Origin: a virus
Lineage: Duplodnaviria; Heunggongvirae; Uroviricota; Caudoviricetes
Virus record (IMG/VR): IMGVR_UViG_2529292913_000008
Direction: 5' to 3' (one strand)
Length of the DNA: 64,000 nucleotides
Shown here: piece by piece, positions 27,263 through 28,398 of the stretch
How positions within the stretch are numbered: position 1 is the stretch's first letter
Layout: every line of letters starts with the position of its first letter
Notes under the pieces: generated by a model
Told to the model about the DNA's origin: nothing
Databases searched by the model: none
What the model saw: only the letters and a program-made list of their open reading frames with translations
Made by a program: the position numbers and the translations under genes

Positions 27263-27339
27263 GCAACGGAAAGAGCATTCTTGGTGGACCTGTAGATTGG
27301 GATATGAACCCGTTACAGGAGAATGCTCTTACCTGTTGC
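27263..27339 (-). ncRNA. tRNA-like structured element E1: 19 bp outer helix enclosing a mini-hairpin with T-arm-like GGG-UUCAUAU-CCC and a single-stranded UCCACCA
   Basis: inverted arms 27263-27281 and 27320-27339; core GTAGATTGGGATATGAACCCGTTAC at 27292-27316 shared with E2. Confidence 0.4.
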
Positions 27340-27393
27340 GTACTCCGTTTCATGGAGTTAACGGCGGACTAACCATCCGCCCCAAATTTATAA

Positions 27394-27807
27394 TTAGCTG
27401 CTTGCTGACGGATAGTTTTTGGTTAATTGGACCAAGCGAGCATCAAGAGCTTTTCGATAATCAATCATGCTTCCGAGCTGAATTTCCAAATCCAACTGCT
27501 TGCACTGGTCTATAGTGAGGAATTTATCTGTTCCAATGAATCGAACAAGCTTATTTATGCGCTGGCATAGCTGAGCACGTTCGATAATCATTCGCTTGTG
27601 GTATTCCTCCAAGCCGTCAATTTTGCCCAACGGAGCTGCTATTTCATTAAATTCACGAAGTGGTATTTTGAGTTCGTTACCGAACACATCTACAACATCA
27701 ATTTCAGATGCATCTTCTTTCGAAACTTTATCGACCTGATAACTGGTGCTAACCACTAAAGAAATAACAAACTGCTCTTTCTGCATAATTACCGTTCTCG
27801 CACTCAT
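27394..27807 (-). CDS. hypothetical protein (137 aa)
   Basis: ORF between E1 and E2; weak ribosome-binding site. Confidence 0.4.
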   Translation of the reverse strand: MSARTVIMQKEQFVISLVVSTSYQVDKVSKEDASEIDVVDVFGNELKIPLREFNEIAAPLGKIDGLEEYHKRMIIERAQLCQRINKLVRFIGTDKFLTIDQCKQLDLEIQLGSMIDYRKALDARLVQLTKNYPSASS

Positions 27808-27924
27808 GGGTGACAGTTTCTAAATAAATTGTGATGGTCGGTGCTGAACTCCGACACAGGGTTGTAGCAAGCCCCGCAAAGCGCGCACTACTGTAGTTGC
27901 GGCACATCAGCCTGTGCATTCACC

Positions 27925-28017
27925 ACAACGTTGAGAACACTGATTGTCACGCTGCAACGCAACATTTATTCGTAGATTGGGATATGACCCCGTTACGCCA
28001 GTGTTCTCAACGTTGTA
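27925..28017 (-). ncRNA. tRNA-like structured element E2: perfect 18 bp outer helix enclosing the same conserved core
   Basis: arms ACAACGTTGAGAACACTG (27925-27942) and CAGTGTTCTCAACGTTGT (28000-28017); core at 27972-27996 is 24/25 identical to E1 while the outer stems differ but still pair. Confidence 0.4.
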
Positions 28018-28162
28018 GTGCCGGTTACGGTTCCGGCCAGGCCTCTTCCTCAACGGGGTGTTCTCCATACGGACTACCGTTTATTGGTCGTTCCTGCGGT
28101 TTATGTTGTGAAGCCAGATGCTTATCTTCTGGTTGCTTCTAAGAGCTGCACTTCATCACAAC

Positions 28163-28236
28163 GGTAAGGGTACTTCGTAGGGATTCGAACCCTCTGCCAA
28201 GCACGGCGATCTCCGACGTCGCAAAATACCCTTACC
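28163..28236 (-). ncRNA. tRNA-like element E3: perfect 10 bp terminal helix enclosing a canonical T-arm (GGG-TTCGAAT-CCC); not a canonical tRNA
   Basis: GGTAAGGGTA...TACCCTTACC; no D or anticodon arm can be formed; directly 3' of tRNA-Thr on the same strand. Confidence 0.35.
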
Positions 28237-28244
28237 TGTTGTGT

Positions 28245-28320
28245 TGGTGCCGGTTAACGGACTCGAACCGCTGACATCCTGCTTACAAGGCAGGCGCTCT
28301 ACCAACTGAGCTAAACCGGC
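28245..28320 (-). tRNA. tRNA-Thr (anticodon TGT)
   Basis: hand-folded cloverleaf: acceptor GCCGGTT/AACCGGC, anticodon loop CTTGTAA, T-loop TTCGAGT, CCA encoded. Confidence 0.9.
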
Positions 28321-28322
28321 AT

Positions 28323-28398
28323 TGGCGATGGTGGATGGATTTGAACCATCGACCCGTTGATTAACAGTCAACCGCTCTAACCGCTGAGCTACACCATC
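28323..28398 (-). tRNA. tRNA-Asn (anticodon GTT)
   Basis: hand-folded cloverleaf: acceptor GATGGTG/CACCATC, anticodon loop CTGTTAA, T-loop TTCAAAT, CCA encoded. Confidence 0.9.

Follow-up and report, generated by a model that had tools for sequence, protein, structure and literature searches.

The double-stranded stalks of rRNA operons and the sites in the early mRNA of phage T7 are cut by ribonuclease III (RNase III). The cuts separate the units of a polycistronic RNA, and bulges and internal loops modulate them. The tRNA cluster of phage T4 includes species 1 and 2 (rnaC and rnaD). These are structured non-tRNA RNAs that are cotranscribed and coprocessed with the tRNAs, and species 1 is an RNase III substrate in vitro. 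The thrS operator mimics a tRNA anticodon arm. The small RNA (sRNA) DicF comes from one polycistronic, repressor-controlled transcript, in which a 190-nt species gets its 5' end from RNase III and the 53-nt form is made by RNase E (bioRxiv 10.1101/2023.04.14.536235). STnc100 marks lambdoid prophage regions that also hold tRNAs (bioRxiv 10.64898/2026.05.13.724894). Here we describe four elements (E1 to E4) in the leader of an early operon of a P1-type phage-plasmid (IMG/VR record IMGVR_UViG_2529292913_000008). The window is the whole stretch of DNA that was analyzed (64,000 nt). Each element has a long helix, the stalk, and an enclosed interior, the cargo. E1 to E4 form functional RNA structures from the same strand as the tRNAs. 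Their family is not specific to P1 and is common among temperate phages of the lambdoid type. We lean toward reading them as stalk-and-cargo modules that are processed by RNase III and so separate tRNAs, sRNA modules, and mRNAs.

The preliminary description of this DNA had reported three structured elements on the strand of tRNA-Asn and tRNA-Thr. All three are real, and E1, E2, and E3 fold as it described. It had not included E4 (Table 1). The folds of E1, E2, and E3 lie far below those of dinucleotide shuffles, and 0 of 200 shuffles were as good. E2, E3, and E4 fold better on the minus strand than on the plus strand.

The E1 stalk contains 6 bp, a bulged A, 2 bp, a U.U mismatch, and 11 bp. 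Its strands are GCAAC-A-GG-U-AAGAGCAUUCU and AGAAUGCUCUU-U-CC-GUUGC. The inner hairpin is CCUGUA-AC-GGG-UUCAUAU-CCC-AAUC-UACAGG, at 27289-27319. It has GGG at 27309-27311, the loop UUCAUAU at 27302-27308 (CAU at 27304-27306), and CCC at 27299-27301. The UCCACCA first noted as single stranded is indeed unpaired in the minimum-energy fold (27282-27288). It is confined to the P1 lineage, and a conserved acceptor-like end was rejected. The E1 of P1 differs by two changes, and pairing is kept only as G-U on the minus strand.

E2 has a perfect stalk of 22 to 23 bp (CAACGUUGAG type). It encloses GGG-GUCAUAU-CCC (GGG at 27989-27991, loop at 27982-27988, and CCC at 27979-27981) plus a second hairpin. 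Its homolog in CMS-2020a directly abuts tRNA-Thr and has changes that preserve G-U pairing. The 25-nt core reported as common to E1 and E2 is identical at 24 of 25 positions. The general hairpin form given there, GGG-UUC(A/G)(U/A)AU-CCC, needs correction for E2, whose loop lacks UUC.

The E3 stalk contains 6 bp, a bulged A, and about 15 bp. It encloses a D-arm-like hairpin, a short hairpin, and a T-arm (AGGGUUCGAAUCCCU, 28179-28193) whose 3' side continues straight into the stalk. The canonical TTCGAAT loop and the contact with tRNA-Thr are as first noted; the loop is UUCGAAU in the RNA, and the stalk starts 2 nt past the tRNA-Thr CCA. E3 is kept in P1, D6, and RCS47. Ro157c2YLVW is without it, and a stalk with a different cargo abuts tRNA-Thr there and likewise in CMS-2020a.

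E4 has a core helix of about 24 bp (28606-28679). Its two outermost pairs are broken in the window and intact in P1 (CAAC/GUUG) and D6 (UAAC/GUUA, compensatory). Its loop is TTCGA in the window. The loop reads TGTGA in P1 and D6, which shows that the resemblance to a T-loop is not a conserved trait.

No element is a tRNA or a tRNA pseudogene. It had been stated that none folds as a full cloverleaf, and neither ARAGORN nor the Rfam tRNA model calls E1, E2, or E3. In a 2.2-kb search, the Infernal tRNA model (RF00005) did not match E1 to E4 even at E<=10.

The same design occurs in D6, RCS47, CMS-2020a, Klebsiella ZX4, ST64B, SfV, phiES15, and Escherichia coli Qin. E1 with its flank matched 90 phage records by BLAST, including Klebsiella ZX4, Salmonella ST64B, Shigella SfV/SfII/SfIV, Cronobacter phiES15, and mEp460. 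The family consensus reads 5' (C)ACAAC, a fifth base (bulged A or paired), covarying pairs, cargo, the matching pairs, and GUUGUG-GUGAAUGC 3'. We took as members of this CACAAC-stalk family the elements with five features. They are pairing of 5' (C)ACAAC with 3' GUUGUG(G), a bulged or paired position 5, at least 11 further covarying pairs, a variable interior, and a place on the sense strand of a phage early operon. E1, E2, and E3 have all of these, and E4 has all but the two outermost pairs.

A pattern scan served as an independent test. It fixed only ACAAC and GTTGTGGTGAATGC and did not demand pairing. The pattern ACAAC-N40-70-GTTGTGGTGAATGC was found in at least 120 viral contigs, with 86 distinct elements among the matches listed. 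Pairing between the anchors is present in nearly all of the elements listed, and at least 25 cargo types occur among them. The stalk covariance model (R1) matched E1 and E3 in the window and nothing else convincing over the 64 kb. R1 cannot span long cargos and therefore undercounts copies; it missed E2, E4, and the Qin copy. Regular-expression and helix scanners were too unspecific, with about 10 chance matches per shuffled window.

Every element examined lies in an early operon downstream of a repressor-controlled promoter. This is Pban in P1, and the elements lie past cI in ST64B, SfV, and phiES15. In the lambdoid-type phages they occupy the early-left operon, where they follow cI and precede genes of the kil/gam type. 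Conservation resides in the stalk base (CACAAC/GUUGUG) and in the 3' flank. The cargos are interchangeable and can be absent, as D6 and Ro157c2YLVW illustrate, and tRNA-likeness thus loses the defining place it was first given. In D6, the E1 slot holds a real tRNA-Ser and then a hairpin whose stalk base and 3' flank are shared but whose interior is unrelated. D6 also has short copies without any cargo. The E1 of Ro157c2YLVW has a precise 13-nt deletion of the GGGUUCAUAUCCC hairpin. CMS-2020a and Cyrano have the same leader, with several stalks, tRNA-Asn/Tyr/Thr, the E2 homolog beside tRNA-Thr, and an E1-type stalk with another cargo.

Rfam holds no family that covers the stalks or cargos. Full-text literature searches, including searches with sequence strings, found no description of the stalk elements. 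The neighboring STnc100/PasD family, DicF processing, and RNase III stalks in general are already known. What is new is a modular, repeated hairpin of the RNase III processing type with cargos that resemble parts of tRNAs.

The covariation set contained 23 copies from nine phages. The cargo was replaced by GAAA and the fifth position was dropped, which gave an ungapped alignment. In this set 94.1% of the stalk cells pair, compared with 71% after shuffling and 38 to 51% in slid-partner controls. Compensatory double changes occur at 14 of the 17 stalk pairs. The stalk covariation score is 0.69 against 0.23, and 0 of 500 shuffles reach 0.69. Covariation of the outer stems had been put forward from E1 and E2 as a sign of functional RNA, and the case is strong once relatives are added. 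On the tRNA-sense strand there are 27 G-U pairs and 8 A-C mismatches. This excess indicates that the selected form is the tRNA-sense RNA and not a DNA cruciform or the opposite strand. Matches to the covariance model were stronger on the sense strand in all cases.

The strand bias and the retained pairing across distant phages both speak against a reading without any RNA function. In that reading the elements are decayed tRNA genes or DNA-level elements, such as pseudogenes, palindromes like miniature inverted-repeat transposable elements (MITEs), or recombination sites of the attC type, which have inverted CAAC/GTTG boxes and an extrahelical base. Some cargos do look like tRNA halves, and recombination between stalk bases has added and removed modules (P1 and the window compared with RCS47; Ro157c2YLVW). 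The boxes ACACAAC/GTTGTGG also have a loose resemblance to the R''/R' boxes of attC. However, the variable segments have their boundaries in spacers and not in the boxes; the open reading frame (ORF) that separates E2 from E1 is an example. An integron integrase is lacking, P1 is a nonintegrating phage, and the attP of SfV (thrW) is kilobases away. The tRNA model scores none of the elements. We consider this reading very unlikely. Three specific candidates were rejected. For an integron attC site, the boxes match RYYYAAC/GTTRRRY only loosely, the boundaries lie in spacers, the strands are asymmetric, and the context has no integron integrase. A MITE or other DNA-level element was discarded because of the strand asymmetry and the ends of the variable segments. 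An attP remnant of a tRNA gene does not fit elements that sit in early-operon leaders, also in the nonintegrating P1; real att-site tRNA fragments lie elsewhere in the contigs.

Processing by RNase III is suggested by prophage Qin of E. coli K-12. There, an STnc100-like module lies between dicF and dicB, and the sequence upstream of dicF aligns with the dicF-like region of the window. By this shared module and upstream alignment, the P1 ban leader and the dicBF leader are homologous. The dicF-like region corresponds in sequence to the 5' part of the Qin DicF precursor, upstream of mature DicF, and not to DicF; the sRNA body differs. The DicF model (RF00039) had no match in 27000-29200 at E<=10.

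Folding placed a stalk in Qin at 17173-17193 and 17239-17258 (L011). It contains CCAUAAC/GUUGUGG, a bulge, 2 bp, an irregularity, and a long helix. It closely resembles copies from viral contigs, such as ATACAACACGAAAGCGCACTC...GAGTGCGCTTCCGGTTGTGG. A 190-nt RNA that ends at the DicF terminator starts at 17246-17252. This is in the 3' strand of the stalk, 1 to 7 nt before GUUGUGG. Because the homologous Qin stalk coincides with the RNase III end of DicF, the P1 stalks are likely to be RNase III sites of the ban transcript. The stalks have the size expected of such sites (about two turns, at least 20 bp of mostly regular double-stranded RNA), with 22 to 23 perfect bp in E2, 6 + 15 in E3, 6 + 2 + 11 in E1, and about 24 bp in E4. 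Among the roles first suggested, that of processing substrates or small-RNA precursors is the best supported, on the strength of this coincidence.

Several points weigh against processing. The Qin RNase III site was placed by RNA length and not by a published nucleotide, and the Qin stalk on its own has only modest stability (z = -1.9). The bulge and the U.U mismatch interrupt the E1 stalk, and RNase III may therefore nick just one of its strands or leave it uncut. A U8-tract terminator (28865-28892) lies between the promoter and the tRNAs and all elements. Their expression therefore needs read-through, unless there is an unrecognized promoter; a simple sigma-70 scan of 27000-29150 showed no promoter-like site apart from Pban. 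Hairpin formation was a criterion for including copies in the covariation set, and structure guided their alignment. Processing also leaves the conserved sequence of the stalk base and the cargos that resemble tRNA parts unexplained.

We propose the following model for processing. A module would consist of a stalk of 17 to 23 bp with a conserved base and a covarying top, an interchangeable cargo of one to three small hairpins, and a 3' flank that opens the next module. The polycistronic transcript would read through the dicF-like terminator and fold one module after another. Host RNase III would cut the stalks near the base. Since E3 begins 2 nt past the tRNA-Thr CCA, a cut there would detach the tRNA block and leave a short 3' trailer as an entry for exonuclease trimming. 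The cuts would also create the 5' ends of downstream modules, and the product after E1 would start at approximately ..CC-GUUGCGGUGAAU.. A cut after E1 would free GUUGCGGUG for the closing helix of the STnc100-like 5' untranslated region (UTR). Cleavage would presumably release the cargo hairpins as small RNAs, which may be stable and active. Those of E1 and E2 resemble the anticodon arm of initiator tRNA-fMet, and the cargo of E3 resembles a tRNA elbow (T-arm plus D-arm-like hairpin).

A T-loop reading of the E1 and E2 hairpin was rejected. We defined a T-arm as a 5-bp stem closed by G53-C61 with the loop U54-U55-C56-R57-A58-N-N, for which the pair U54-A58 is required. The E1/E2 hairpin departs from this: it has U at position 58, and its position 54 is variable (U or G, and C in relatives). 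E3 has the canonical loop on a stem of 4 bp plus G.A, and it alone among E1 to E3 appears to carry a T-arm. The early interpretation is partly supported. Functional RNA is borne out, processing has the best support among the suggested roles, and tRNA-likeness as the defining trait needs revision.

In ST64B, SfV, and many contigs, the E1/E2 hairpin takes the form (R)AC-GGG-CUCAUAA-CCC-AAUC. The E. coli gene metZ reads GTCGGGCTCATAACCCGAAG, and the 14-nt run CGGGCUCAUAACCC is identical in SfV-type relatives. The run takes in all of the anticodon loop together with the three G-C pairs that are specific to initiator tRNA. The three consecutive G-C pairs (29-31:39-41) are GGG/CCC in E1, E2, and all 19 aligned variants. 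The loop of an initiator tRNA has 7 nt, with U33, CAU, and a purine at 37, and in E. coli it has C32 and A38. The hairpins keep U33 and CAU, and position 37 is A in E1 and E2 and U in one variant type. The P1 copies have U or G at position 32 and U38 instead of C32 and A38. Pairs 27-28:42-43 of the 5-bp anticodon stem are replaced by an asymmetric AC/AAUC internal loop in every copy.

The motif was found in 119 instances in more than 120 viral contigs, and every instance is enclosed by a long stalk. The loop is CUCAUAA (C32, A38) in 98 of the 119, and the P1 forms UUCAUAU and GUCAUAU are minorities. U33-C34-A35-U36 is invariant in all variants while positions 32, 37, and 38 vary, although for the contig matches AC, GGG, UCAU, CCC, and AAUC were fixed by the search pattern, and the seven variants found earlier are the unbiased support. 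The stem outside the AC/AAUC loop covaries at 7 of 7 pairs, with a score of 0.41 against 0.17 (0 of 500 shuffles). From the invariant U33-CAU and the 14-nt identity of relatives with metZ, the E1/E2 hairpin is better read as an initiator tRNA-fMet anticodon arm than as a T-loop. The CAU tRNA of the phage itself has the anticodon stem GGCGA/UCGCA. This differs from GGG/CCC, so the hairpins are not copies of that tRNA. Pairing of the CAU loop in cis with the start region of the downstream ORF was rejected: matches were only 5 to 6 nt, which is about chance, and there were none for the P1 copies.

T-arm consensus hairpins are also present in other cargos. They occur in E3, in one CMS-2020a element, and in a common contig type with two such hairpins. 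In 2.4 Mb, about 14 of 37 non-tRNA T-arm matches lie inside stalk cargos; the rest are attachment-site tRNA fragments or chance matches in ORFs. Look-alikes of tRNA subdomains are therefore enriched among the cargos and are neither universal nor indispensable. The common cargo with two T-arm hairpins (GUCUGGUUCGAUUCCAGAC and GUCCGUUCGAUUCGGGC) also has a tRNA-like 3' half. It is found at 5700-5840 (+) in L160 and in about 10 other viral contigs, and no Rfam family matches it.

Such cargos could be tRNA mimics that, released or not, compete for or inhibit host factors that recognize parts of tRNAs. The E1/E2 hairpin would divert VapC-type PIN toxins, and T-arm cargos would engage elbow-recognizing enzymes. 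The array would then be an RNA counterdefense island beside counterdefense tRNAs, which is compatible with stalks as processing sites. Enteric VapC toxins, including those of Shigella and Salmonella, cut the tRNA-fMet anticodon stem-loop between A38 and C39 (PMC4105405). A released mimic of the initiator arm could thus be a decoy. Phage tRNAs have been proposed as countermeasures to VapC, PrrC, and colicins D and E5, phages usually avoid encoding tRNA-fMet, and the neighboring tRNA-Asn (and tRNA-Tyr in relatives) is a target of colicin E5 (PMC10264068). The metZ identity with its initiator-specific pairs and whole loop, the invariant U33-CAU, the wide spread of the motif, always inside a stalk and with a covarying enclosing stem, and the concentration of T-arm hairpins in cargos all fit this reading. 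On the other hand, most cargos resemble no tRNA part, and Ro157c2YLVW has lost the E1 hairpin and lacks E3. The P1 loops have diverged, with U38 at the position where VapC cuts. The invariant internal loop stands in place of the upper pairs of the anticodon stem, and part of the invariance among the contigs was imposed by the pattern.

We see mimicry of this kind as unlikely overall. A decoy role of the cargo is attractive and speculative, and on the sequence evidence its chances appear low. More doubtful still is a specific form in which the stalks are a "presentation and release" scaffold, and RNase III frees tRNA-subdomain decoys that titrate or inhibit host toxins such as the VapC/MvpT PIN nucleases of Shigella, Salmonella, and E. 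coli. The decoys would mainly be initiator anticodon arms (E1, E2, and the very common SfV-type copies), together with T-arm or elbow mimics (E3). If it were true, the early-operon leader and its tRNA genes would be an array of shuffleable RNA-only counterdefense cassettes.

The window is a P1-type phage-plasmid, and P1-family phages are 96 to 97% identical to it by BLAST. E1 to E4 and the tRNAs lie on the minus strand, in the untranslated leader of the C1-controlled ban operon. The P1 record (NC_005856) has the order Pban/Oban, "dicF-like region," tRNA-Asn, tRNA-Thr, tciABC, tRNA-Ile, and ban. The minus-strand order in the window is Oban, dicF-like region, E4, tRNA-Asn, tRNA-Thr, E3, E2, 137-amino-acid (aa) ORF, E1, and STnc100-like module. 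The operon starts in the Pban/Oban region, where ATTGCTCTAATAAATTT lies at 29069-29085. The dicF-like region is closed by an intrinsic-terminator-like hairpin (28873-28892) with the U8 tract (span 28865-28892, minus strand). ARAGORN calls only Met, Thr, and Asn tRNAs in the window. The STnc100-like module is followed by a gene for a small membrane protein (phrog_1130) and one for an SPFH/Band-7 lipoprotein. These replace tciABC at 26067-27111 (-), as they also do in RCS47 and Ro157c2YLVW. Rfam also found the C4 antisense RNA with its targets in the window. RNA-OUT (IS10-type antisense RNA, 98.8 bits) and sok (114.9 bits) matched at 4419-4488 (+) and 46420-46594 (-), respectively, and are unrelated to the stalk elements.

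Table 1. Positions of the elements and of the surrounding features in the window
Feature	Position	Strand	Evidence
Pban promoter/C1 operator Oban region	29050..29100	-	Matches P1ban/P2ban and Obanab annotation of NC_005856
dicF-like sRNA region	28865..29010	-	P1 "dicF-like region" annotation; alignment with Qin; terminator scan
E4, fourth stalk-and-cargo element, upstream of tRNA-Asn	28604..28683	-	Fold z = -4.2; homologs
tRNA-Asn (GUU)	28323..28398	-	ARAGORN; Rfam tRNA 74.5 bits
tRNA-Thr (UGU), encoded CCA ending at 28245	28245..28320	-	ARAGORN; Rfam tRNA 74.9 bits
E3	28157..28243	-	Fold z = -5.45; covariance model 27.6 bits, E = 7e-5
E2	27921..28020	-	Fold z = -8.17; inverted repeat
Mini-module after E2	27896..27929	-	Sequence; hairpin covariation
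137-aa protein gene (moron) between E2 and E1	27394..27807	-	ORF list; PF21825 crAss001_48-related, E = 3e-15; phrog_15270, E = 1e-94
E1	27262..27340	-	Fold z = -5.96; covariance model 35.2 bits, E = 5e-7
STnc100-like module directly after E1, 5' UTR of next ORF	27145..27265	-	RF02076 37.8 bits, E = 4e-6; eight-phage alignment
Third tRNA, anticodon CAU; tRNA-Ile2-like in P1 annotation	25964-26039	-	
upl/plp frames	27166-27372, 27897-28142; L001 1659-2228	+	

The leader from 28860 down to 27145 is densely structured and is translated only in the one inserted ORF. The hairpins might therefore act as structural insulators or as padding against Rho. They would keep about 1.7 kb of untranslated RNA folded and block Rho loading and misfolding of the modules, and neither cleavage nor a cargo function would be required. 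The interchangeable or absent cargos agree with this, as if the helix alone matters. It leaves unexplained why stalk-base and 3'-flank sequences are conserved across distant phages and why the bulge and mismatch geometry is kept. It also does not account for the coincidence with the Qin RNase III site or for the finding that one specific cargo motif, with its covarying stem, is so widely conserved. We judge it improbable.

The RF02076 match of the STnc100-like module is below the gathering score (47 bits). It covers model positions 31-147 and is adjacent to E1, not E1 itself. The module has a clear homolog in eight phages, with invariant ends. The helix that closes it (GUUGCGGUG/CACCGCAGC) shares nucleotides with the E1 stalk at the 3' base. 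This helix covaries (GUUGUGGUG/CACCACAAC compared with GUUGCGGUG/CACCGCAAC) and has the form GUUGYGGUG/CACCRCAAC. In the minimum-energy fold of E1 plus the module, the outer 5 bp of E1 open in favor of the closing helix. A miniature of this arrangement follows E2. In this mini-module, GUUGUGG, which is shared with the 3' stalk base of E2, can close on CCGCAAC around GCACA-GGCUGA-UGUGC. The hairpin covaries, with GCACA/UGUGC in the window and P1, GCGCA/UGCGC in CMS-2020a and RCS47, and UCGCA/UGCGA in D6. Qin has a well-conserved STnc100-like module at 17455-17585 (L011), which is the 5' UTR of dicB. A 12-bp helix (AAUUUUGUGAUG/CAUCACAAAAUU) surrounds this module, which is absent from the RefSeq annotation.

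The competing helices could form a riboregulatory switch. The 3' base of the stalk (GUUGYGG) would pair either with the upstream CACAAC or with the downstream CACCRCAAC/CCGCAAC and so set the expression of the downstream gene. The targets would be genes that are often toxic (dicB, kil, or tciA) or the membrane protein gene in the window. The module lies immediately upstream of dicB in Qin, of kil in phiES15, and of tciA in P1 and D6. The opening of the outer E1 pairs, the covarying downstream helix, and the repeated arrangement after E2 are in keeping with a switch. But the overlap is only 5 to 6 nt, and for the most part the two helices can form together. Such a partner is missing at E3 and E4, and no ligand or signal is apparent. 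RNase III cleavage would also settle the competition by itself. We regard a switch as quite unlikely.

The array appears to change by whole modules. RCS47 has E3, a spacer, and a further stalk. The arrangement in P1 and the window resembles the outcome of a deletion from one 3' stalk strand to the other, and Ro157c2YLVW keeps only the second of these RCS47 elements. tRNA-Tyr, tRNA-Ser, and small ORFs come and go. The 137-aa ORF, which is absent from P1, D6, and RCS47, is one such insertion in the window. The repeated stalk bases thus serve as recombination substrates too, as suits a modular accessory region, and the selection at the RNA level still stands. The spacers at 28021-28156 (-) and 28399-28603 (-) contain further conserved small hairpins common to P1, D6, and RCS47. 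Examples are GAAGCAACCAGA...UCUGGCUUC followed by ACAAC, CCGG-AACCGUAA-CCGG, and ACGGG-UAUAU-CCCGU. A tRNA with a long variable arm and a UGA anticodon (Ser) recurs in D6 (L003, 1638-1724, minus strand), CMS-2020a (L005, 2120-2204, minus strand), and Cyrano (L006, 2412-2498, minus strand). The Rfam tRNA-Sec model gives it 43 to 45 bits, with a threshold of 47, and the D6 annotators flagged it as odd.

Two P1 genes are annotated across the elements. The gene plp lies opposite E2, E3, and tRNA-Thr. Its frame is interrupted in the window, and it has no Pfam or PHROG support. The gene upl overlaps E1 and the upstream spacer. It matches PHROG families of unknown function and has no Pfam match. Both are probably antisense artefacts of the structured RNA and not real genes.

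The genomes of P1 and the lambdoid phages rank with the most thoroughly studied of all, yet the ban-operon leader of about 1.7 kb has been annotated only with these two doubtful opposite-strand ORFs. The family extends over hundreds of contigs from temperate phages. The covarying module offers a testable model for how tRNAs and sRNAs (DicF-like and STnc100/PasD-like) are excised from early transcripts. It also bears on hot spots of module exchange and on annotation. If the initiator-arm look-alike engages VapC-type toxins, the ribosomal P site, or methionyl-tRNA synthetase (MetRS), it would be a new RNA-based form of host manipulation. It would also bear on why phages carry tRNA-related genes.

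Comparison with known RNAs gave several partial likenesses. YrlA (RF02553) has a long end-to-end stem and a tRNA-like domain with a T-arm, as E3 does. It differs in that the window has no Ro/Rsr context and the T-arm is placed differently relative to the stem. The YrlA model misses all of the elements, and its only match (19.9 bits) spans two real tRNAs. Rfam matches of the tmRNA and microRNA type were far below threshold or merely reflected a long hairpin. The E1/E2 cargo shares with the tRNA-fMet anticodon stem-loop the three G-C pairs, the 7-nt loop, and U33 with CAU. It differs in having no cloverleaf, acceptor end, or T-arm. Its upper stem is the AC/AAUC loop, and P1 differs at positions 32 and 38.

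T4 species 1 and 2 are single genes of a virulent phage, whereas the family described here is modular and belongs to temperate phages, and a likeness in sequence or architecture is not expected. Compared with the rRNA and T7 sites, the stalks in the window are short range and repeated, have a sequence-conserved base, and enclose small interchangeable hairpins. The STnc100/PasD model (RF02076) matches the module 3' of E1, and E1 to E4 lie outside it. The module in the window is the 5' UTR of an ORF, whereas STnc100 is an sRNA that ends at a terminator.

The closest described system is the RNase III site of the Qin DicF precursor (Faubladier et al. 1990; Ragunathan et al. 2023 preprint). It differs from the P1 array in that the stalk occurs once, tRNAs are absent, and the cargo has neither structure nor likeness to a tRNA. 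The Qin stalk is not known as part of a repeated family. The two leaders are homologous and have in common the dicF-like region and the STnc100-like module. Each is one polycistronic RNA from a repressor-controlled early promoter. The Qin stalk has the same base (CCAUAAC/GUUGUGG), the same order of bulge, 2 bp, and irregularity, and a long upper helix, as in the rest of the family.

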